Shown here: piece after piece, positions 31,973 to 58,902 of the stretch | Layout: every line of letters begins with the position of its first letter | Position numbering within the stretch: the stretch's first letter is position 1 | The notes under the pieces: model-generated | The model's input: the letters and a program-made list of their open reading frames with translations, nothing else | The model's database searches: none | What the model was told of the DNA's origin: nothing | IMG/VR virus record: IMGVR_UViG_3300017917_002441 | Span: 32,001 to 96,000 of that record | DNA length: 64,000 nt | Direction: 5' to 3' (one strand) | Origin: a virus | Made by a program: the position numbers and the translations under genes

Positions 31973-32272
31973 ATGAATATCAACACCGGAGAAGTTTACA
32001 CACTCAAGCTCAATTCAGGCGAAGAGCTAATTGCCAAAGTTGTAGCACGTACAGACCAATATCTAACTGTAGAAAGTCCTGTAAGCGTGGCCCCTGGGCC
32101 GCAAGGCATGGGCTTGGTGCCAAGCTTGTTTACAGCTGATCCCCGTGAAAATGTCACAATAAATATTAACAGTGTAGCAGTTGTTGCCGTCACTGAAGAT
32201 GCTGTCAAAATGAAATTCATTGAAGCAACCACTGGTATCAAGGTGCCAGATAAAAAGATCATTATGGGATAA
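31973..32272 (+). CDS. Hypothetical protein (possible Sm-like fold)
   Basis: KLNSGEELIAK pattern common in T4-like phages. Confidence 0.65.
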   Translation: MNINTGEVYTLKLNSGEELIAKVVARTDQYLTVESPVSVAPGPQGMGLVPSLFTADPRENVTININSVAVVAVTEDAVKMKFIEATTGIKVPDKKIIMG

Positions 32273-40482: not shown

Positions 40483-41847
40483 ATGATCTTGAGTTATTGG
40501 ACCCTTGCTGTAGCACTGTCCTTGAGCCTGGTGGCTGCTTGGTATAGTATCGCTGGCCTTGCGGCCATTTTTGCCGCGGCAGTAATGCCCATTGTAATCA
40601 TGGGCGGTATCATGGAAGTGGCCAAGATCACTGTTACAATATGGTTGCACGAATACTGGCAATACGCCAAACGTGCCATGAAGATACAGCTCACTATTTC
40701 AGTGGTGTTGTTGATGTTTATTACCAGCATGGGCATTTTTGGTTTCCTAAGCAAGGCACACACAGATCAAAGTTTAATAAGTGGCGATGTACAAAGTAAG
40801 ATTGCAATATATGATGAAAAAATCAAAACTGCTCGAGAGAATATTGAAGCCAACCGCAGACAACTCAAACAAATGGATGAGGCTGTGGACCAAGTCATGG
40901 CACGAAGCACAACAGAAGAAGGTGCGTCAAAAGCGAATGCTATACGCAAATCTCAGCAAAGGGATCGTACTAGTCTTGCCAAAGACATTGAAGCCAACCA
41001 GAAGCTCATTGCTACTCTTAATGACGAAGCCGCACCTATTCGAGCAGAAGTACGTAAAGTAGAAGCCGAGGTTGGGCCAATCAAATACATTGCCGCCTTG
41101 GTTTATGGTGATAATCCCGACGCAAACTTACTAGAAAAAGCTGTACGCTGGGTAATAATTTTATTGGTTATAGTGTTTGATCCTTTGGCCATTGCCATGG
41201 TGTTGGCAGCCACGGAGAGTTTGAAATGGGAACGACAGCGAGTATTTGACGCCCTAAACGTTGTGCCTGAAGAAGCCAAAGATGACCCAACACCTGAACC
41301 TGCCCCAGTTGATGACCCGCCGACCGACAGTTGGCAAGAACGCACTGATGAATTACTGGAAATATTCAAAGACCAACCAACTCATTTGGATCCAGAACCA
41401 ACAACTGAGATCGACGATGAGCAAGAAACTCCAGAAATAAAAGAAGCCATGCGCCGTTGGAAAGAAGCTAACCCTGGGGACACACTCAAGCATCAACGTG
41501 CATTGTTAGAACAAGGCAAGATCAAAGAGTTGCCTTGGATGCAGTTGATTGCTGACAATGCTTTACCAAGAGAACCCAAGTCTAGATTTGGTACACGTTT
41601 CCCGGATGATCCCATCAAAGGCGATAGCTTTGTTAGAGTTGACCAGCTTCCCACTGTGTTGTATAAATTCAACGGAAAAGACTGGATTCAAGTTGACAAA
41701 AGTTTAACAGACAACTATACTTACGATACAGCCTACATTGATCACTTGATAGAAAAAATCAGCTCAGGTGAGCTTGATATTGAACTATTGAGCGACAGTG
41801 AACGTGAGCAAATTACTCAACAACTTCAAACTCGTACAAATCAATGA
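40483..41847 (+). CDS. Membrane protein with long coiled coil
   Basis: N-terminal TMs, ITSMGIFGFLSKAH, coiled coil, EVGPIKYIA, VFDPLA. Confidence 0.75.
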   Translation: MILSYWTLAVALSLSLVAAWYSIAGLAAIFAAAVMPIVIMGGIMEVAKITVTIWLHEYWQYAKRAMKIQLTISVVLLMFITSMGIFGFLSKAHTDQSLISGDVQSKIAIYDEKIKTARENIEANRRQLKQMDEAVDQVMARSTTEEGASKANAIRKSQQRDRTSLAKDIEANQKLIATLNDEAAPIRAEVRKVEAEVGPIKYIAALVYGDNPDANLLEKAVRWVIILLVIVFDPLAIAMVLAATESLKWERQRVFDALNVVPEEAKDDPTPEPAPVDDPPTDSWQERTDELLEIFKDQPTHLDPEPTTEIDDEQETPEIKEAMRRWKEANPGDTLKHQRALLEQGKIKELPWMQLIADNALPREPKSRFGTRFPDDPIKGDSFVRVDQLPTVLYKFNGKDWIQVDKSLTDNYTYDTAYIDHLIEKISSGELDIELLSDSEREQITQQLQTRTNQ

Positions 41848-43360: not shown

Positions 43361-45241
43361 ATGAGCAAAGTCATTGGTATTGACTTAGGTACCACTAATT
43401 CATGTGTAGCCGTTATTGAAAACGGAACCCCCCGAGTAATTGAAAACAGCGAAGGCGCACGTACAACGCCCAGTATCGTTGCCTATGCCGAAGACGAAAT
43501 CCTAGTGGGTGCGTCGGCCAAACGCCAAGCAGTTACCAATCCCAAAAATACAGTGTATGCGGCCAAGCGACTGATTGGTCGTAAGTTTGAAGAACAAGCT
43601 GTACAAAAAGACATTGACTTGATGCCGTATGAAATCATCCGAGCAACCAATGGCGATGCATGGGTACGTGCTCGAGACAAAGACCTAGCACCTCCGCAAA
43701 TCTCTGCAGAAGTTCTTCGCAAAATGAAGAGAACTGCCGAAGACTATCTTGGTCACGAAGTAACTCAAGCAGTTATCACAGTTCCAGCTTACTTTAACGA
43801 TAGCCAACGTCAGGCCACCAAGGACGCAGGTAAAATTGCTGGCTTGGAAGTATTACGTATCATTAACGAACCCACAGCGGCTGCTCTAGCATACGGAGTA
43901 GACAAGAACGACAAAGCCGATCGCAAAGTAGCTGTGTATGACTTGGGTGGTGGTACATTTGACGTAAGCATCATTGAAATCGCCAACGTAGACGGTGACA
44001 AACAAGTTGAGGTACTCAGCACCAACGGCGACACCTTCCTGGGCGGTGAAGACTTTGACCAGCGCATTATGGACTTCCTGTGCGACGAGTTCAAGAAAGA
44101 AAATGGTATTGATCTCAAGAAAGACATGCTGGCATTGCAACGTCTCAAAGACGCCGCAGAAAAGGCCAAGATTGAACTTTCAAACAGCGCACAAACAGAC
44201 ATCAATTTGCCGTATGTCACAGCAGATGCTACTGGTCCCAAACACTTAAACGTCAAACTCACACGTGCTAAGTTGGAAAGCCTAGTAGAAGATCTTATCA
44301 AGCGCAGTCTTGAACCATGCCGTGTTGCTATGAAGGATGCCGGGGTAAGTGCCAGCGACATTGACGAAGTTATCCTTGTTGGTGGACAAACACGTATGCC
44401 CAAGGTACAAGAAGCAGTTGAGCAACTGTTTGGCAAGGCACCGCGTCGAGACGTAAACCCTGACGAAGCTGTGGCAGTGGGTGCGGCGATTCAAGGTGCA
44501 GTGTTGTCAGGGGATCGCAAAGACGTATTGTTGTTGGACGTTACTCCACTAAGCCTTGGCATTGAAACCATGGGCGGCGTAATGGCCAAGTTGATTCAGA
44601 AGAACACAACTATTCCTACAAAGCAAAGCCAAGTATTCTCTACAGCAGAAGATAACCAGCCTGCTGTGACAATCAAAGTGTACCAAGGTGAGCGAGAATT
44701 TTGCCAACACAACAAGCTCTTGGGCGAGTTTAACTTGGAAGGTATCCCGCCAGCACGTCGTGGCACACCGCAGATTGAAGTTACATTGGATATTGACGCC
44801 AATGGTATTATGCACGTCAGCGCCAAGGACAAAGCCACTGGCAAGGAAAACAAGATCACTATCAAGGCCAACTCAGGCCTAACAGAAGCAGAAATCCAAG
44901 ACATGATCAAAGACGCAGAACTCAATGCCGAAGAAGATCGTCGTCAACGTGATCTTGTGCAAGCTCGTAACAATGCCGAAAGCACTGTACACAATATCCG
45001 CAAGGACATTGAAGAACTACGCACTGAACTCACTGCTGAACAAATTGACAAGATTGAAGCAGTGTGCAAGGAACTCGAAGAAGCTGCCAAGGGCACTGAT
45101 CGTGAAGCAATTACTAGCAAGATCAGTGAAGTCATGGTAGCTAGCGAACCCATCTTTAAGGCAAAAGCCAACAAAGACAGCAGTGAAGCCAAAACTGACG
45201 ACACTGTGGTTGATGCTGACTTTACCGAGAAGAAAGACTGA
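43361..45241 (+). CDS. dnaK: Chaperone DnaK (Hsp70)
   Basis: [39 protein letters not shown]. Confidence 0.97.
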
Positions 45242-45806: not shown

Positions 45807-46118
45807 ATGGCACAAGCAGAACCAAGAACAAAAATCAAACCCGTAGAAAAAGTCAAAGAGCCACCTATGTTTCGTGTGATTTATCTAAATGATAATCAAA
45901 CCAGCATGGAGTTTGTAATTGATAGCCTCATGGAGTACTTTGATTACACCGAAGAAAGTGCTGAAAAACTCACCATTGACATCCACGAAACCGGCAGTGC
46001 TGTTGTTGCAGTGCTACCGTATGAAATTGCGGAACAAAAAGGTATTGAAGTTACAATCAGTGCCAGAAGTCAAAGCTACCCGCTACAGGTCAAGCTTGAG
46101 CCCGAAGACGTAGTTTAA
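45807..46118 (+). CDS. clpS: N-end rule adaptor ClpS
   Basis: P.MFRVIYLNDNQTSMEFV, IH..G.A, EIAEQK, YPL. Confidence 0.9.
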   Translation: MAQAEPRTKIKPVEKVKEPPMFRVIYLNDNQTSMEFVIDSLMEYFDYTEESAEKLTIDIHETGSAVVAVLPYEIAEQKGIEVTISARSQSYPLQVKLEPEDVV

Positions 46119-46918
46119 ACATTAATCTCAATGCGCATGGGATGATACACATGACGGCACCAATCGGTGCCGTGTCTACCACGGCAGTTGTTTAAAAATC
46201 TTATGTCATGGCGAGTTTGATCCACACTGCCATGATAGTGTCCAAAGCACCAAGTATGTAATTTGTTGCCGTGGTCTGCGCCCAGGGCTTGCATCATGTT
46301 GTTGTTGCCCAAGGTGTTGAAGCGCATGGTACCGTCAAGACTGATGTCGTGTTTGACTAATTCCCAATAAGGCACAGTGTGTGTAACCGCTACAATATGC
46401 TGTACGTCAAGGTGAGTTTGTAGTTTGTCTACACTGCTGATCATGTAAGTGGCATCAGTGTTGCTCATTCTAGCGATGCTTTTGGTTGTGCGTGAGTTAA
46501 TTGGGGCATGTGGTTGCATTTTTTCTTCCCACCACAAGGCACATTGTTCAGGGTTGATGCTAATGTCAAAATCCCAGCCCCACCACCCGTTGGTGCCTAA
46601 TATAGCCACACCATCGATCACAACTAGATTATTTTGCAAGTAAACAACATTGGGAATTTTAGCAATGCGTTTTTCTAAGTCACGATAACTGTTGGGGAGA
46701 TCGTCATAGTAGTCCACATGTTCTTCGTTGCCGTCTATATAAAACACAGCTTGATAGCATTGACCAAGATGTCTAAGTGTATTAATTAACAAGTCACGAT
46801 CTCTAGCAACATCTCCAGCTACTATACAAAAGGAACTGGTGGCACGACCCTCCCAGTCAAACGGTTTAGGCCACGTGTCTACGTGTAAATCAGAAATTAA
46901 ATCAAAAGCAAATTGCAT
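46115..46918 (-). CDS. Calcineurin-like metallophosphoesterase
   Basis: SDLH, AGD, GNEEH, THTVP, FGHYH; TAAATA 6 nt upstream on - strand. Confidence 0.85.
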   Translation of the reverse strand: MQFAFDLISDLHVDTWPKPFDWEGRATSSFCIVAGDVARDRDLLINTLRHLGQCYQAVFYIDGNEEHVDYYDDLPNSYRDLEKRIAKIPNVVYLQNNLVVIDGVAILGTNGWWGWDFDISINPEQCALWWEEKMQPHAPINSRTTKSIARMSNTDATYMISSVDKLQTHLDVQHIVAVTHTVPYWELVKHDISLDGTMRFNTLGNNNMMQALGADHGNKLHTWCFGHYHGSVDQTRHDIRFLNNCRGRHGTDWCRHVYHPMRIEINV

Positions 46919-46942
46919 GATACATATTTAAAAGGAATTGAC

Positions 46943-47299
46943 ATGAACATAATATTTGGCGAAGACATTAAACATTTACCTGACAACTACACCATCCTAG
47001 AATTAGATAGTTTTAGATTCACTAGATCGGGAGAAATTGCCAAGGCATACTGTGTGGTTGAGAAAATACCCTTGGGTGAATTCCCCACACTAGACGAATA
47101 CAGAAATGCACACAATGAACTGTTGGTGCAGTATCGTGCTAAGAATTGGGAGTATTGCCAGGAAGCTATCAAAGCACTAACGGGCCGCTGGGGTGGAGAG
47201 CTTGACACATTTTATCAAAGCCTGCTGGAACGTGTGCAAGCTTACGAACAAACACCACCTGGTGATGACTGGGACGGTGTGATACTTAAAATAGCTTGA
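46943..47299 (+). CDS. Stand-alone paralogue of adenylate-cyclase C-terminal tail
   Basis: Y..LELD...H...L..YR...L.GR..GE.D..Y....ER......P...DWDGV shared with 52858..54909; AAGGA SD before ATG 46943. Confidence 0.7.
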   Translation: MNIIFGEDIKHLPDNYTILELDSFRFTRSGEIAKAYCVVEKIPLGEFPTLDEYRNAHNELLVQYRAKNWEYCQEAIKALTGRWGGELDTFYQSLLERVQAYEQTPPGDDWDGVILKIA

Positions 47300-48414
47300 T
47301 CAAAGTTAGTTAAGAACTCATTGATGATTTGTTGTTGAAACGCATGCGAAAAGAAGTGCTTTTGATTTCTTTTCGCAATAGCTCTTAACTGTTGCAAAGT
47401 GTGTTCATTGGCCAAGGTCAATTGATCCATGGCATACACAATGGCACGTAATCGTTGCACTGGATCTTTTATTGTGTCATATGTTTCGTCAATAAGCCCG
47501 CTGAATGTTTCAAATCCGTAACTGCGCAAATATTCAAGTGCGCCAGGGGTAGATGCAAGAATAAACGGCTGTGCGCATGCGATTGGTCGTAAAGCTTTTT
47601 CTGTTAAGTGTAGACGTTCATCGTCAAACAATGTTTCTAACACAACTTCAACATGAGTTTCTTGATAGTCTGTTGAACAATAATCTGCACTGGCTGACGC
47701 TGGGGTTTGATTCAAAGTAAAATGTTGTTCAAGATCAGTGGCAACAATTTTAAATGCAGGATTGGCGAACTCATGAGCTCTATAGTGCTGTTCGTTATCA
47801 ATGGGGTTGAATCCCATTTTACACAGTGTAGCAACACTGCTCTTTGATACTAATTCGGCAAATTTTAGTCGATATTCTCTAGACCCGCCCCAGGCTCGAT
47901 TGTAAATTAAAAATAGCTTTTGAATATTTTTCTTGTGTAGCAATGGATCATGCTCGGCATATCTGTACCAGTCACGTGCAATTAGTCCATGGCTCCAAAA
48001 GTACACTGGCCAGTGATTTTTACTTGCAAGGTTGCTAACTTGTTTACTGTTGAGTTCGCTGTGCGTAAACAACACTGGTTTATCTGAGTCCCCGGTTGCT
48101 AGTATTTTTAATTCAAATTTTCTAAACAATTCAACCGCTTGTTCGTCAGAGATGTGCCGTGATGTTGGATCAATCTGAACCATGTAATTCTTCCATTGAA
48201 TAATGTCTTGATTAGAATATTGGGAGAAGTTAATTGGCTCTTGGTCATGAGACAACATAACTAGCGATGTTTCTAATTGTTGATTGGTATAGTTTTTCAA
48301 CGGAACCATGTGTTCAAGTTTTTTTGAGCCATGCGGGAACCAGCGATAAATTATGATATCGGTCTTGACAACGTCTTCTAAAAAATTGTATAATCTATCT
48401 AAAGGAACACTCAT
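47242..48414 (-). CDS. Putative glycosyltransferase-like protein (ET...TEK family)
   Basis: VLETL...LTEK.LRPI...PF...YLRSYGFETF...IDETYD; start likely ATG 48414 (MSVPLDRLY). Confidence 0.55.
   Translation of the reverse strand: MSVPLDRLYNFLEDVVKTDIIIYRWFPHGSKKLEHMVPLKNYTNQQLETSLVMLSHDQEPINFSQYSNQDIIQWKNYMVQIDPTSRHISDEQAVELFRKFELKILATGDSDKPVLFTHSELNSKQVSNLASKNHWPVYFWSHGLIARDWYRYAEHDPLLHKKNIQKLFLIYNRAWGGSREYRLKFAELVSKSSVATLCKMGFNPIDNEQHYRAHEFANPAFKIVATDLEQHFTLNQTPASASADYCSTDYQETHVEVVLETLFDDERLHLTEKALRPIACAQPFILASTPGALEYLRSYGFETFSGLIDETYDTIKDPVQRLRAIVYAMDQLTLANEHTLQQLRAIAKRNQKHFFSHAFQQQIINEFLTNFDQAILSITPSQSSPGGVCS
48365..48394 (+). promoter_or_regulatory. sigma70-type promoter inside the opposite-strand gene
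   Basis: TTGACA-18-TATAAT, then AAGGA SD and ATG 48416. Confidence 0.55.
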
Positions 48415-48415
48415 T

Positions 48416-49669
48416 ATGAAAAATATTGGTTTTATTGGTCTGGGCAAACTTGGCCTTGACTGTGCTGAAGTATTTGCTGAAAAGCACACAGTTCGCGGGT
48501 TTGATATTTACCAACGTACCAGCAACAGTGTAAAAGTTTGCGGCATTGAAGAATGTGTCAACGAAAGCGAGTGGATCTTTATTGCTGTGCCTACACCGCA
48601 TGCTGATGGATATGATGGCTCAGTGCCCAGCAGCCACATGTGTCCCATGGACTTTGGGCATGACGCTGTAATCGAAGCAATTGACAATGTCAATAAACAC
48701 GCTCGTGAATCAAAGAAAATTGTGTTGATTTCAACAGTGTTGCCTGGAACAACACGCCGTAAGTTTATCACACGCCTTGACAAAAAGCACCAGTTCTTGT
48801 ACAACCCTTATCTCATTGCCATGGGCAGTGTGAAGTGGGACATGGTCAATCCTGAAATGGTCATGATTGGCACAGAAGATGGCAACCCCAATGCACTAGC
48901 CGGCGAGCTAATTGACATTTACAAAACTATTATGCAAAACAACCCACGTTACGAAATTGGTACATGGGACGAATGCGAAGCCATCAAGATCTTCTATAAC
49001 ACATTTATTTCAGCCAAAGTTGGACTTGCAAACATGATTCAAGACTTTGCAATGAAAATTGGCAACATCAATGTTGATGTAGTTACAAACGCATTGGCAC
49101 GTAGTACCATGCGTATCATGGGGCCTAAATACATGACAGCAGGCATGGGCGATGCCGGTGCTTGCCATCCACGTGACAACATTGCCTTGCGCTGGCTAGC
49201 ACAAGAATACGACATTGGTTACGACTTGTTTGACACAATTATGCATGCTCGTGAAGTGCAAGCAAAAAACTTAGCAGAATTCTTAGTTAAAGAATCAGGT
49301 AATTACATTGTTGGTCAATACATGCCAATTGCTATTCATGGCAAAGCCTACAAGCCCGATGTTCCCTACTGCATTGGTAGTTACAGTACACTAGTGGGAC
49401 ACTATATCAAAGCCTTGGGCCGCGATGTTGTTTATCTTGATCCCTTGGCCGATGACCCCACAGATGTAGTAGCAAACCTTGGTGATACACCACATGTTGT
49501 GTTGTGGGCACACAACCGTAAAATCACATATGAGTACACTGGCGATCAAGCTGATACTCAACCCTATTGTGAAATTCCACAAGGATCTGTTATTGTTGAT
49601 CCGTGGCGTAAATTAGAACTCACAGGAAAGCATACTATTATCCATTATGGCAACACACGAAATAATTAA
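48416..49669 (+). CDS. UDP-glucose/GDP-mannose dehydrogenase family protein
   Basis: GFIGLGKLG, IAVPTP, STVLPGT, EAIK..YN, GACHPRD (catalytic Cys). Confidence 0.88.
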   Translation: MKNIGFIGLGKLGLDCAEVFAEKHTVRGFDIYQRTSNSVKVCGIEECVNESEWIFIAVPTPHADGYDGSVPSSHMCPMDFGHDAVIEAIDNVNKHARESKKIVLISTVLPGTTRRKFITRLDKKHQFLYNPYLIAMGSVKWDMVNPEMVMIGTEDGNPNALAGELIDIYKTIMQNNPRYEIGTWDECEAIKIFYNTFISAKVGLANMIQDFAMKIGNINVDVVTNALARSTMRIMGPKYMTAGMGDAGACHPRDNIALRWLAQEYDIGYDLFDTIMHAREVQAKNLAEFLVKESGNYIVGQYMPIAIHGKAYKPDVPYCIGSYSTLVGHYIKALGRDVVYLDPLADDPTDVVANLGDTPHVVLWAHNRKITYEYTGDQADTQPYCEIPQGSVIVDPWRKLELTGKHTIIHYGNTRNN

Positions 49670-52857: not shown

Positions 52858-54909
52858 ATGCTAAAAAAATTACTGCTTTCACCATGGACAGCAACGGTAA
52901 CTCTTGTATTAATCTTGGCAGTTAGAACCGCAGATCCTGTTTTTGTTGAAAGTATTAGATTACGTTATTTTGACACACTGATCACTGCCAAAGAATCTAC
53001 AGTCAACAACATTGTTACTGTAAATATTGACGAAGCCAGTTTGGATCGTTATGGTCAATGGCCGTTGCCGAGAGCTGAATATGCCAAAATTGTTCGAGAT
53101 CTATACCAGAAGGGAGCAGGCCTTGTGGTACTTAATGTACTCATGCCAGAGCCAGACCGCACAGGTGGCGACAGTGCGTTGGGTCAAACTCTAAAGGAAT
53201 TCCCAGTAGTGCTGGGCAGTGCGCCTGCAAACAACACCAAAAACACTCCACGAGTACCTGGCTCAGCAGTGCTGAATCCCGAGTACCTAGATCAAATCAT
53301 ACAATATCCGGGGTTAATAGCCAACGTTCCGCAATTGGAACGCAATGCCGCTGGTGTTGGCGTCACAGGCACACTGCCCGAAGTCGACGGTGTTAATCGT
53401 CGCATGCCTTTGATTGTTGCAGTAGATGGCAAACTATATCCAGCTCTAAGCTTAGAAACTTTGCGTGTGGCAGCCAACGATTCAACCTTTCAAGTCAAGC
53501 TGTTTGAAGGCGGTGTTGAAAAAATGCGCATTCCACAGTTTGGTGTCATTGCAACGGATAGCCTAGGGCGTGTGTGGATTGACTGGAGTCAACAAAGTCA
53601 AAGCTACAGTCTAACCAATATACCAAACAATTTAAACGGAGCTATTGTAATAGTAGGCCCTACGGCCGCTGGAATAGGTAACCCGTTGCCAACTGCTCGT
53701 GGTGCTGTGTGGCCGCACGAAGTGCAAGCCGCAGTGATAGGCACCATGGTCAACGGCGTTGTTATACAACGTCCTGACTACGCAGACGGTGTAGAAATCA
53801 TAGCCCTGGCAGTGGCTAGTATATTACTGCTGTTTTTAACAAGGTGGACTTATGCGGGATTGGCTAGTGTTATTGTGTTGGTTTGTGGCTCCGTGGCTGG
53901 TAGTTGGTGGGCTTTTACTAATCATTTATGGTTATATGACGCTACTGCCTTTGCAGTTGGCACAGTCCTGGTCGCTTTGCATGCCTACGGAGTCAAATTT
54001 GTTTCAGAGTTCTTACAGAAACAACAAATAAAGAAACAGTTTGGCACATATCTCTCGCCCGCCATGGTTGAGAAGTTGCAGAAGAATCCTGAGCTATTAA
54101 CTTTGGGTGGCGAGTCAAGAGAGTTAAGTATCATGTTCACTGATGTGCGCGGGTTTACTTCGATATCTGAACACTATGGTCGAGACGTACAAGGTCTTAC
54201 TAAAATTATGAACCGGTACATGACTGCAATGACTGCCAAGATCATAGAAAACAACGGAACGTTAGACAAATACATTGGCGATGCACAAATGGCATTTTGG
54301 AACGCACCGCTAGACGATGCAGATCACGCAAAAAACGCAGTTCGAACAGCATTAGAAATGATGAGGAGCCTTGATGACTTTAATGCAGAAATTACTCAAG
54401 AAGGTGTGCCAGCCTTTGGTATGGGTCTTGGAATCAACACCGACACTGTTGTGGTGGGTAATATGGGATCTAGTCAGCGTTTTGACTATACTTGCCTTGG
54501 TGATGGCGTCAATTTGGCTAGCCGATTGGAGGGCCAGAGTAAGCCGTACGGTGTCCGAATTGTACTTGGTCCAAGGACTGCAGAATTGGTGCAGGAAGAA
54601 TACTACGTACTAGAACTAGACTGTATTGCTGTTAAAGGCAAAACACAAGGTGTACACATCTATACAGTGCTAGGGCACAACAATGATGTTGTTGCCGAAT
54701 CCAATGATAGACAGATGCACGAAGCAATGTTGGCATTGTATCGTCAGAAAAAGTTTGATACAGCTATAAAATTCTGTCAGGACTTGCGCGGAAGATTCAA
54801 CGGTGAAATGGATTACTACTACACTGCTTGGATTGAACGTTGTGAAGAAATGAAAAACACCCCTTTGCCCACAGACTGGGACGGGGTGTATCGTGCTACC
54901 AGCAAATAA
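52858..54909 (+). CDS. CHASE2-domain class III adenylate cyclase
   Basis: N-terminal TM; IDE.SL..YGQWP.PR and DGV.RR.PL (CHASE2); three TMs; FTDVRGFT, DKYIGDA, FDYT.LGD.VNLASRLE; TAAATA 5 nt before ATG. Confidence 0.93.
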   Translation: MLKKLLLSPWTATVTLVLILAVRTADPVFVESIRLRYFDTLITAKESTVNNIVTVNIDEASLDRYGQWPLPRAEYAKIVRDLYQKGAGLVVLNVLMPEPDRTGGDSALGQTLKEFPVVLGSAPANNTKNTPRVPGSAVLNPEYLDQIIQYPGLIANVPQLERNAAGVGVTGTLPEVDGVNRRMPLIVAVDGKLYPALSLETLRVAANDSTFQVKLFEGGVEKMRIPQFGVIATDSLGRVWIDWSQQSQSYSLTNIPNNLNGAIVIVGPTAAGIGNPLPTARGAVWPHEVQAAVIGTMVNGVVIQRPDYADGVEIIALAVASILLLFLTRWTYAGLASVIVLVCGSVAGSWWAFTNHLWLYDATAFAVGTVLVALHAYGVKFVSEFLQKQQIKKQFGTYLSPAMVEKLQKNPELLTLGGESRELSIMFTDVRGFTSISEHYGRDVQGLTKIMNRYMTAMTAKIIENNGTLDKYIGDAQMAFWNAPLDDADHAKNAVRTALEMMRSLDDFNAEITQEGVPAFGMGLGINTDTVVVGNMGSSQRFDYTCLGDGVNLASRLEGQSKPYGVRIVLGPRTAELVQEEYYVLELDCIAVKGKTQGVHIYTVLGHNNDVVAESNDRQMHEAMLALYRQKKFDTAIKFCQDLRGRFNGEMDYYYTAWIERCEEMKNTPLPTDWDGVYRATSK

Positions 54910-56017: not shown

Positions 56018-57109
56018 TTACCGCTGTATAATAGTGATCACTGTGGTTCCGCCGCGATTAATCTGCTGTGTTAATGGTGTACCGTCTTGCACAATGTTTA
56101 GCATAACATCAGCTTCAAGATCCACAGTTACTTGTGCAGTGTGTGTGGTTTGTTTGCGTAGCACTAGTTTGGTGTCGTCTTCGTTTTTTCCGTAAGTTAG
56201 CCCACTGGCAGCTGAGTACCCTGGCAACATTGTTTGTTCAGCTAATATAGCTTCTTGACTAGCAGACAACGTTTGGTTGGCCACGTCCAGCATGTTTGTT
56301 AAAAAATTAACGTCCAAGTAGTTGATATCTAGTTCAACAAATTTTCGAAGTTGGTCTTGGTCCAGTTCGTCATATTTTAAAAAATCTTGATTTAAAAAAT
56401 TTACATCTAATACAGTGCGTTGATCTGTGTTGTTGTCTTTTTCCGTGCTTTGCTTAATCTCAGGTGGCGGGCTAACAATCAATAAGTTGTTGATGTTAGC
56501 AGGGTCTACAGTTACTACCACAGGAGCGGTTGGCGGAGTTGACAAGCTGGCAACCAAAGTAGCTTGAAAAGGTTGGTCTAGTAATACAACCCCGGCATCA
56601 TTGCTGACCATAATAGCCCCAGTGACACAGGCTCGTGAATCACAGCTGGGCAATAGCATAACCAGGCTACGGCCCAGTTCGTCTACAGTCATTGAAAAAT
56701 CTGTACCACGCACTGCCACTGTAGCAGTGGGGGTCTGTACGTTGACATTTTGCGGTGAGTTTTTTGCTATCTGCCCTGATGCGTATCTAGCAGTGCCTTG
56801 TACCATTTTCATGGCCAATTTGCCAGATCCTTTTTTTGGATCATACACAAAGTCGTCTATCACCAACTTTGATTGTTCGGTAATTTTAACAGTGGTATTG
56901 TCGTCAAATGTGAGTTGAGCTTTTGCTCGAGCAGTTACCACAGTGTCGTTCATCTCCACGGCGGAATTTACATTACTCGATACAGACTTTTTGTTGCGTA
57001 TGATTTCAGTAGGGCCAGTTTGTTCTGTTACCCGGCCCACTGCCGCCCAATTAGTCTGACTGAATAATGCTAATATTATTGAGATTGCCAGTGCTGTTGA
57101 CCGTGACAC
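56018..57109 (-). CDS. FecR-domain secreted protein
   Basis: Signal peptide; D.V.T, L.F.D.T...I.E.S.L.ID, G.ARY.SG, V.TPTATVAVRGTDF. Confidence 0.85.
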   Translation of the reverse strand: MSRSTALAISIILALFSQTNWAAVGRVTEQTGPTEIIRNKKSVSSNVNSAVEMNDTVVTARAKAQLTFDDNTTVKITEQSKLVIDDFVYDPKKGSGKLAMKMVQGTARYASGQIAKNSPQNVNVQTPTATVAVRGTDFSMTVDELGRSLVMLLPSCDSRACVTGAIMVSNDAGVVLLDQPFQATLVASLSTPPTAPVVVTVDPANINNLLIVSPPPEIKQSTEKDNNTDQRTVLDVNFLNQDFLKYDELDQDQLRKFVELDINYLDVNFLTNMLDVANQTLSASQEAILAEQTMLPGYSAASGLTYGKNEDDTKLVLRKQTTHTAQVTVDLEADVMLNIVQDGTPLTQQINRGGTTVITIIQR

Positions 57110-57674
57110 TCTTGTTTAACATTCCACTTTGTGTTACTGCTACAGTGTTGGTATTGCCAGTCACTGTGATATCTGCTGAAGTTGTGCCAGTAGCAGTGCT
57201 GGTATGAGTCACAGTGTTAGTGTCCCCCGCAACAGTGATGTTACTGGTGTGATTTGCGCCAGCACCTAGAGTCTGTGTTATGGTGTTGTTGTCACCGTTC
57301 ACAGTTTGTGTGATAGTACTACCGCCGCAGGTTGATGACACTGTGCTACCACATGTGATTTCCTGAGTGTTGGTACTGCCAATGGTTGCAACAGCCACAG
57401 TTGTAGCCGCACCGTTTACCACCATGTTCAACACATTGTTGCTACCAATTTGATCTATAGTAACAGTGTTTGCACCTGACCCAATGTATGCTGGATTCAA
57501 ACTTGATCCAACTCGATTATCACTACCGTCTTGGGTAATGGTAATAGTACTGCCGCTGCCAATTTGTTCAACATAAACTTCGTTGGCATGCCCCGGCATT
57601 ATCATCGCAGACAATGCTAGAATTGCAAGTATTTTTTTCGACAACTTGCCAGCGCCTGTTCTTCCTTTTTTCAT
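57051..57674 (-). CDS. Curlin-like repeat secreted protein
   Basis: Signal peptide; repeated Q.G..N / G..N.V beta-arcade units (EQIGSG, TQDGSDN, DQIGSNN, NGDNN, GDTN, GNTN). Confidence 0.7.
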   Translation of the reverse strand: MKKGRTGAGKLSKKILAILALSAMIMPGHANEVYVEQIGSGSTITITQDGSDNRVGSSLNPAYIGSGANTVTIDQIGSNNVLNMVVNGAATTVAVATIGSTNTQEITCGSTVSSTCGGSTITQTVNGDNNTITQTLGAGANHTSNITVAGDTNTVTHTSTATGTTSADITVTGNTNTVAVTQSGMLNKSVTVNSTGNLNNISIIQSD

Positions 57675-57676
57675 TT

Positions 57677-58456
57677 TTATTGTTTTCCTCGGAATCTCCA
57701 GAGCCCTCTTTTCTCACCCTCAACAATCATTTCGTAAACACCTTGTTCAATGGCTACACGAACTGCATAGTTTGTGGGTTCATTCAATGCGGCACCGCTT
57801 TCTAACTCAACACTGTTGGTGCTTTGATCAACAAAGCGCAACACGCCGACATTGTGTGCAGTGCTATAGATAGTCTTGGAAACAGCGTTGGTCAGTAAAA
57901 CTTCGCCCGAGTTAACGCTGATTAATCTTAAACTGATTACAACTTCATCAACTCGATACTGTTGGCTCCCACCGATTCCCAAAAATCTAGCACCATTACC
58001 ACCGGATCGTATATTGCTATCGTATCCAATAATGCCTCCTTCTATCATGATACCAGCCACTGTGAGTGGCTTCAAGGGCTTGGCATCTTTGCCCTCGTAA
58101 ACTTCACGCTGGTTGCGTATAAGTTGACGTTCTTTGACCAAGTTGTCTAATCCCACACGTTCAACAACTCGAAACCAATTTTTACTATCTTGTAAACTCT
58201 TTATTAGATACACTTCGGCGCCCTGAGTAACTGCTTTACTAAACAGTGCCAGTTTATCATTGGGTTTCATTTGTCCGGTTTTGTCTGCAAACCCATACAC
58301 AGCTATGGTCATGGGAGGACCGTCTAGTGCAGGCAAATTGTTCAGCAAGTTCTCACGTGGTTGCAAGGCCACCGGTTCTTCTCGAGCCAATTCCATGTGT
58401 ATATTGGCACAGCCACTCAGCGTTAACAAAACAATAATAGCGATTAGGTACTTCAT
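57677..58456 (-). CDS. csgG: CsgG-family outer-membrane secretion lipoprotein
   Basis: LSGC lipobox; AVY.F.DKTGQ.K, S.AVTQG, WF.VVER.GL.NL.KERQ.IR, EGGIIGYD.N..SGG.GA. Confidence 0.92.
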   Translation of the reverse strand: MKYLIAIIVLLTLSGCANIHMELAREEPVALQPRENLLNNLPALDGPPMTIAVYGFADKTGQMKPNDKLALFSKAVTQGAEVYLIKSLQDSKNWFRVVERVGLDNLVKERQLIRNQREVYEGKDAKPLKPLTVAGIMIEGGIIGYDSNIRSGGNGARFLGIGGSQQYRVDEVVISLRLISVNSGEVLLTNAVSKTIYSTAHNVGVLRFVDQSTNSVELESGAALNEPTNYAVRVAIEQGVYEMIVEGEKRGLWRFRGKQ

Positions 58457-58902
58457 TAGAATGCAAAGCTCGCTATTGGAACAGTAATGTCAGTTCTATT
58501 ACCGTTGGACTCTATTATGGTTAGAGTAACATCTGCGCCAGTCTTGACCCAACTTATATTTGTTCCTTGAAAGTCTAAGTTGCCAGATGTGGCACCGCCA
58601 TCGGCAAACATTGCGTCTGCCAGTTGTTTGGATAATTGTGCGTAGATACGTGATTCAACGTTGACTAAGAACTTGGCCAAGTTAGTATTCTTGGCATCAC
58701 GTTCGGCCTTGTCGGCCAAGGCCTTGGCTTCGTCTCGGAGTTTTTGTTTGCGTTGGTTTTCCAACTGCTCGATTGTCAGGACGTGGCTACTATACCCTTG
58801 TCCTGAGAAGGCTGGCGAGTTGAACTGATGCACCAGTTCGGTGGCGTGGCTCCGGCCGATAATTACTACTGCCAGGGCGCCTGCGATTATAATTTTATTC
58901 AT
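58456..58902 (-). CDS. csgF: CsgF-family curli assembly protein
   Basis: Signal peptide; ELVHQFNSPAFSG N-terminus; F...ESRIYAQLS; adjacent to csgG. Confidence 0.8.
   Translation of the reverse strand: MNKIIIAGALAVVIIGRSHATELVHQFNSPAFSGQGYSSHVLTIEQLENQRKQKLRDEAKALADKAERDAKNTNLAKFLVNVESRIYAQLSKQLADAMFADGGATSGNLDFQGTNISWVKTGADVTLTIIESNGNRTDITVPIASFAF

Follow-up and report, generated by a model that had tools for sequence, protein, structure and literature searches.

MicroProteins are single-domain proteins that derive from the interaction domain of a larger protein and act as decoys or in a dominant-negative manner. The small phage protein described here is likewise short and corresponds to just one non-catalytic part of a multidomain enzyme, and a comparable inhibitory action may apply to it. 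The C-terminal extension of bacterial class III cyclases (CHASE2-, response-regulator- or GAF/PAS-linked) is the same module as the small protein over its full length; however, the small protein stands alone, begins directly behind the catalytic Asn/Arg helix, no longer has the KGK motif and is almost exclusively viral, and its family is set off by a long, fully supported branch from all sampled tails. In addition, a viral type VIII (curli) secretion module with FecR and an adenylate cyclase has been published for pelagiphages and Melnitz (PMC9599517). The cyclase at 52858-54909 in the window analysed here belongs to the same published cassette, whereas the small protein lies outside the cassette, is absent from Melnitz and HTVC008M, and is kept in relatives that lack the cassette.

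The window is a stretch of 64,000 nucleotides (positions 32,001 to 96,000) of the IMG/VR record IMGVR_UViG_3300017917_002441; the record is 149 kb long and estimated to be 44% complete, and its relatives reach 320-364 kb, one of them with terminal repeats. The following features, in window coordinates, are needed for the comparison.

45807-46118, plus strand: clpS (Pfam ClpS, 1.7e-24), found upstream of the small gene in all 80 loci.
46115-46918, minus strand: divergent calcineurin-like metallophosphoesterase (MPE), 267 aa, of a phage-wide family (phrog_1649, five motifs, AF2, Foldseek).
46919-46942, no strand: divergent spacer GATACATATTTAAAAGGAATTGAC, 24 nt, between the starts of the MPE and the small gene, with the AAGGA Shine-Dalgarno sequence of the small gene.
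46943-47299, plus strand: small gene, a 118-aa stand-alone cyclase C-terminal module (start from the invariant MNIIFG, homology to the cyclase tail, AF2 model).
52858-54909, plus strand: CHASE2 class III adenylate cyclase, 683 aa (Pfam), accessory cargo with a curli-type (T8SS) cassette at 56018-58902.
54553-54909, plus strand: paralogous module within the CHASE2 adenylate cyclase, residues 566-683 (BLASTP alignment).

The small ORF was listed with a TTG start at 46913 and a length of 128 aa. An alignment of 29 small-protein relatives revealed an invariant MNIIFG N-terminus, and the true start is therefore ATG 46943, with a product of 118 aa; the gene has its own Shine-Dalgarno sequence. A word-indexed search found 442 relatives with lengths of 64-207 aa; the stand-alone relatives, more than 440 and almost all of them viral, have a typical length of 114-123 aa. 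An exhaustive search gave 382 clusters at 50% identity, of which the best 150 consist entirely of short proteins. In the structure search, the Atlas clusters of the small protein were 88-98% viral. Relatives down to ~31% identity keep the length, the start M-x-I-[IV]-[FLM] and the conserved residues, and the identity range of the small gene across loci resembles that of the adjoining genes. Fused forms were not found in a word-indexed search for longer proteins, which is weak as evidence; the phage collection contained no match to the region (megablast) or to the small protein (tblastn), and two single-protein locus scans gave no match. In a clade of uncultured aquatic jumbo phages of ~320-365 kb, the ORF at 46943-47299 is a functional core gene, an addition to what is known of this widespread clade.

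The initial annotation had aligned the 118-aa ORF by eye with the C-terminus of the CHASE2 cyclase, and pairwise BLASTP against the 683-aa cyclase upheld this alignment: residues 1-113 of the small protein correspond to cyclase residues 566-677, with 28% identity over 114 aa and an E value of 3e-12. Among all window ORFs, the C-terminus of this cyclase (52858-54909) is the sole significant match of the small protein. As the cytoplasmic part of the cyclase aligns to solved cyclases (Cya2 2w01, 6fht) as far as approximately residue 606, residues 1-40 of the small protein (cyclase 566-606) are equivalent to the three beta strands that close the catalytic domain. The aligned stretch is composed of three cyclase-domain beta strands followed by a helical tail of ~75 aa that ends in PPxxDWDGV, and is not the tail alone. 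Cyclase residues 607-683 have no counterpart in Pfam or among the solved structures of the PDB, and the strands-plus-tail module is not annotated in Pfam or NCBIfam.

An AF2 model of the small protein, built from the family alignment, is confident and compact (pLDDT 83.5, pTM 0.75), with the elements E2-5, H6-11, E17-26, E32-39, H44-65, H69-79, H85-103 and E114-116. The predicted fold comprises three beta strands, a TPR-like tail of three helices and a last strand at PPGDDWDGV. It superposes on Atlas models of CHASE2-, REC- and GAF/PAS-cyclases over 113-117 residues with a TM of 0.78-0.83, both sides of the comparison being predicted. At the level of profiles, the small family matches 14 cellular tails with an hhalign probability of 99% and an E value of 2e-18, and the cyclase tail of Melnitz with an E value of 6.9e-12. 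Foldseek of the small protein against the PDB gave no match at E<=0.001, a profile search of the PDB with the small protein or the tail gave none, and VIA-align wide returned only generic TPR-like or three-helix matches over approximately residues 45-107, with Z of 5-6.4, which is the noise range for helical units. A mostly viral Atlas cluster of 182-aa proteins with Guanylate_cyc also superposes on the small protein (TM 0.83); these proteins may represent an intermediate form, half-cyclase plus tail, or fragments at contig ends.

Nine positions have the same majority residue in the small family, the phage tails and the cellular tails, namely G6, L21, D22, Y36, H57, Y64, R97, W110 and G112, at frequencies of at least 72% in the small family and the phage tails and of 57-100% in the 14 cellular tails. 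D22, H57, Y64, R97, W110 and G112, common to the three groups, probably hold the strands and helices together as one folding unit, which would explain why the three strands have been retained.

The module is not restricted to phages. In a scan across prokaryotes, with one genome for each species, cellular cyclases were found that match to the last residue of the query and end in ...PPxxDWDGVxxxTSK, and such tail-bearing cyclases were observed in Pseudolabrys, SAR116, Rickettsiales, Legionellales, Magnetococcales, Planctomycetota and Spirochaetia. In broader groups, cellular cyclases with the tail come from Alpha- and Gammaproteobacteria, Planctomycetota and Spirochaetota. A search with the cyclase-tail region reached only phage-like cyclases. 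Among phage enzymes, the Melnitz cyclase (L184, 54825-56876; 683 aa) has the tail, and the 611-aa HTVC008M cyclase (L185, 11972-13807) ends straight after the catalytic domain and has none, indicating that the tail is dispensable in at least one phage cyclase and is not essential for catalysis. These comparisons define a conserved and previously unannotated C-terminal module of class III cyclases that can exist as an autonomous protein. The autonomous form offers a handle on the role of the tail in bacterial receptor cyclases, and, as the stand-alone protein is small and predicted to fold alone, it could serve directly as a probe or competitor.

An unrooted maximum-likelihood tree, built on 122 columns, covered 35 small proteins together with 10 cyclase tails from phages and 18 from genome records. 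In this tree, the small family forms one side of a single branch with 100/99 support, and the phage cyclases group elsewhere. As judged from this tree, the family is old and is set apart from every sampled cyclase tail by a long, fully supported branch. Because of the 100/99 split from all cyclase tails sampled, the small gene is not a recent copy of the tail of the phage's own cyclase, and a recent duplication of that tail is ruled out. An exact correspondence to a C-terminal cyclase fragment would also fit a decaying, functionless remnant of a former cyclase gene, but the hundreds of relatives that retain the same length, start and conserved residues down to ~31% identity, together with the Shine-Dalgarno sequence of the gene itself, the confident compact model and the single deep clade, speak against decay; a pseudogene remnant is ruled out by this conservation pattern, and we give that explanation next to no weight.

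The absence of the catalytic motifs, also claimed at the outset, was confirmed at three levels. The small protein has no PF00211 profile match, and no Pfam family is matched even at an E value of 10. D429, K471, D475 and the helix GDGVNLASRLE (548-558) of the cyclase all lie upstream of the segment that matches the small protein (566-677); as the small protein starts just past this helix, the metal-binding Asp residues, the residues for specificity and the Asn/Arg pair are all absent from it. Of the catalytic elements, KGK in the beta7-beta8 turn alone falls within its span. KGK is invariant in cyclases (K593-G594-K595), whereas the corresponding positions 27-29 vary across the small family, so that the phosphate-binding motif has been lost. 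With every catalytic residue missing, the small protein is catalytically inert.

In view of the missing active-site residues, the small protein presumably acts by binding. We tentatively favour the reading, at a probability of roughly 0.45, that it is an inert binding module of cyclase origin, most likely a mimic or decoy of the cyclase tail that alters cAMP output. The small protein would occupy the usual contacts of the tail, and its target would be either a receptor cyclase with the tail, encoded by the host or, where there is one, by the phage, or else the partner of the tail; the outcome would be an altered cAMP output during infection. The MPE would be a separate, general phage enzyme that was inserted between clpS and the small gene in most lineages. 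It counts against a decoy that the constant linkage of the small gene is to clpS and a chaperone/protease block, and to no cyclic-nucleotide gene, and that five relatives encode no cNMP-binding protein. A more specific proposal, which we consider unlikely, is that the strands-plus-tail module serves class III cyclases as a regulatory domain not described before, and that the phage copy, acting in trans, docks on tail-bearing receptor cyclases of the host or on a tail partner and thereby silences or hijacks host cAMP signalling during infection. If true, this would amount to a novel form of viral interference with the production of second messengers, exerted at the enzyme and not by degrading or sequestering the messenger.

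The order clpS (plus), MPE (minus) and small gene (plus) was observed in all 80 loci of the first scan. In a second scan, which reached distant members, five contigs (L106, L107, L116, L130 and L181) lack the MPE and carry the small gene straight after clpS, and in two of them (L106 and L107) the start of the small gene overlaps the stop of clpS (ATGA). clpS is the sole constant neighbour of the small gene. This linkage raises the possibility that the module has been recruited to a role that has nothing to do with cyclic nucleotides, as a small protein-binding domain that works with the proteostasis block (clpX, S21, dnaK, hsp20 and clpS), for example as a ClpS/Clp adaptor, anti-adaptor or substrate-selector. 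Universal adjacency to clpS, the direct succession in the MPE-less contigs, and the ATGA overlap, which suggests a single clpS-small operon with translational coupling, are all consistent with such a role, as are the retention of the small gene in genomes without a cyclase and the resemblance of the helical part to generic TPR-like binding units (Z 5-6.4). However, the whole block is syntenic across the clade, so that adjacency carries little functional weight; the small protein has no homology to any known Clp adaptor, and the fold matches are within the range expected of common helical arrangements. Co-option is a substantial alternative, somewhat less probable than our preferred reading, the decoy or mimic of the cyclase tail.

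Several further observations concern the block and its surroundings. dnaK (window 43361-45241) lies between the S21 gene and hsp20, a position that it occupies in only 4 of 80 related loci, and it is accessory within an otherwise conserved clpX-S21-hsp20-clpS block. The ORF at 40483-41847 (454 aa), upstream of clpX, was considered as ClpP and dropped, as it matches no Pfam family. In many relatives this ORF has a two-piece match (residues 1-252 and ~300-450), which suggests a variable middle, and the N-termini of the relatives look membrane-spanning. At the other end, the small gene has a 58-nt 3' overlap (window 47242-47299) with a convergent gene for a 415-aa protein; L001 shows the same overlap, and the 415-aa homologue of most relatives stops short of the small gene. 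The listed starts of the 415-aa gene (minus strand) and of a UDP-glucose dehydrogenase-like gene (plus strand) overlap at window 48353-48489. As the matches of relatives begin at approximately residue 18-26 of the 415-aa protein and at residue 22 of the UDP-glucose dehydrogenase-like protein, the real starts are probably near 48414 (minus) and 48416 (plus), forming a tight divergent pair.

The 24-nt start-to-start gap between the small gene and its divergent minus-strand neighbour, as originally noted, agrees with the coordinates. This spacer measures 24 nt in 69 of the 80 loci and 25 nt in 9, and its sequence, GATACATATTTAAAAGGA, is nearly invariant, especially in the first 18 nt (57 distinct sequences; L001-L080), although the MPE and small proteins that flank it are merely ~50-60% identical. 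The motif is present a single time in the window. Read on the minus strand, the spacer is TTTTAAATATGTATC-ATG and contains a TAAATA box 6 nt upstream of the start codon of the MPE. This box may be a late-promoter-like element, in which case its position only 6 nt before the start would imply a leaderless or very short-leader MPE mRNA.

The neighbour across the spacer proved to be a calcineurin-like phosphoesterase, as the initial annotation had proposed. It matches the phrog_1649 profile at 3e-26, with no Pfam match over threshold (Metallophos_2 at 13.9 bits vs 27). In an alignment of 20 sequences, five metal-site motifs are invariant or nearly so (DLH, GD, GN(D/E)EH, TH and GHYH), corresponding to D10-L-H12, G35-D36, G63-N64-x-E66-H67, T179-H180 and G226-H227-Y-H229, with GN(D/E)EH as a variant of motif III; given that all five are kept, the enzyme is predicted to be probably active. 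Its AF2 model (pLDDT 92) matches 98 MPE chains of the PDB at E<=1e-3 in Foldseek, whereas searches of the PDB by sequence and by profile gave no meaningful match. The nearest solved fold is that of the phosphopantetheinyl hydrolase PptH from M. tuberculosis (PDB 6unc; TM 0.65-0.69, Foldseek E ~1e-9 to 1e-10), followed by Dbr1 and MPPED2, and Rv0805 falls below all three with a TM of 0.40-0.46. The phage MPE shares this fold with PptH; however, it is just 16-18% identical to it and belongs to a virus-dominated family, and at such identity no function is inferred from PptH. A comparison with NCBIfam found no CpdA-type match; the only model returned, TIGR03729, scored 30 bits where the cut-off is 148. 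Together, the NCBIfam and fold comparisons lend no support to a cyclic-nucleotide substrate and do not argue decisively against one. The Atlas clusters of the MPE are 79-100% viral, and relatives at ~25% identity occur in many jumbo phages that have no small-protein homologue, among them phage G, 121Q-like phages, Rhizobium phages and Atu_ph07. By these sequence comparisons, the MPE is a member of a general phage enzyme family, separate from the small protein.

The cyclase of the window has a CHASE2 domain at residues 14-323 and a Guanylate_cyc domain at 421-602 (Pfam), and its catalytic motifs are intact. It is adjoined by CsgF, CsgG, a curlin-repeat protein and FecR, and in relatives its presence or absence tracks that of CsgG. 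A full-length cyclase was found in 3 of the 10 relatives searched (G001, G004 and G006), and also within the flanks of a few further loci of the first scan, e.g., L047, L051 and L076. The small gene and the MPE are kept in G007 (343 kb, 99% complete) and G008 (320 kb, 92% complete), in which there is no PF00211 match and no CsgG. Conversely, Melnitz and HTVC008M have the cyclase and no stand-alone small protein. A search of five relatives for a cNMP-binding protein or domain found none.

These distributions bear on the broader interpretation offered in the initial annotation, in which the cyclase as writer, the MPE as eraser and the small protein as dominant-negative or adaptor form one phage cyclic-nucleotide circuit. 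Such a circuit has some attraction, as the three genes lie within 9 kb in the window, the catalytic motifs of the cyclase are intact, the divergent pair of MPE and small gene is joined by a near-invariant 24-nt spacer in most relatives, and MPPED2 and Rv0805, both active as cNMP phosphodiesterases, are among the weaker fold matches of the MPE. However, the three genes are not co-inherited, and all three pairwise dissociations were observed across genomes: the small protein and the MPE occur without the cyclase in the two nearly complete genomes, the cyclase occurs without the small protein in Melnitz and HTVC008M, and the small protein occurs without the MPE in five contigs. Moreover, the MPE family is present in many phages that have neither partner, its best fold match is PptH and no cNMP phosphodiesterase, CpdA-type matches are absent from the NCBIfam comparison, and the cyclase belongs instead to the curli/FecR cassette. 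The small gene is passed on independently of both the MPE and the cyclase/curli cassette. What stands of the original interpretation is the homology to the cyclase C-terminus, the lack of catalytic motifs in the small protein and the identity of the neighbouring MPE; the union of the three genes in one system fails on co-occurrence across phages. We consider a three-part circuit quite improbable, and the attractive cAMP reading is corrected as unsupported; a decoy or dominant-negative action of the small protein on host cyclases may hold apart from such a circuit.

The region downstream of the small gene differs between loci in its content. In L026 (10408-17580), the whole curli/FecR/cyclase cassette lies just downstream of the small gene, and in L003 (10327-16804) the same place is taken by genes for a class III aminotransferase, a GT4 glycosyltransferase, a second Metallophos protein, a Gram-negative porin and a PstS-like phosphate-binding protein. 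Directly behind the small gene there is accordingly a hotspot for cargo, as seen in L003 and L026.
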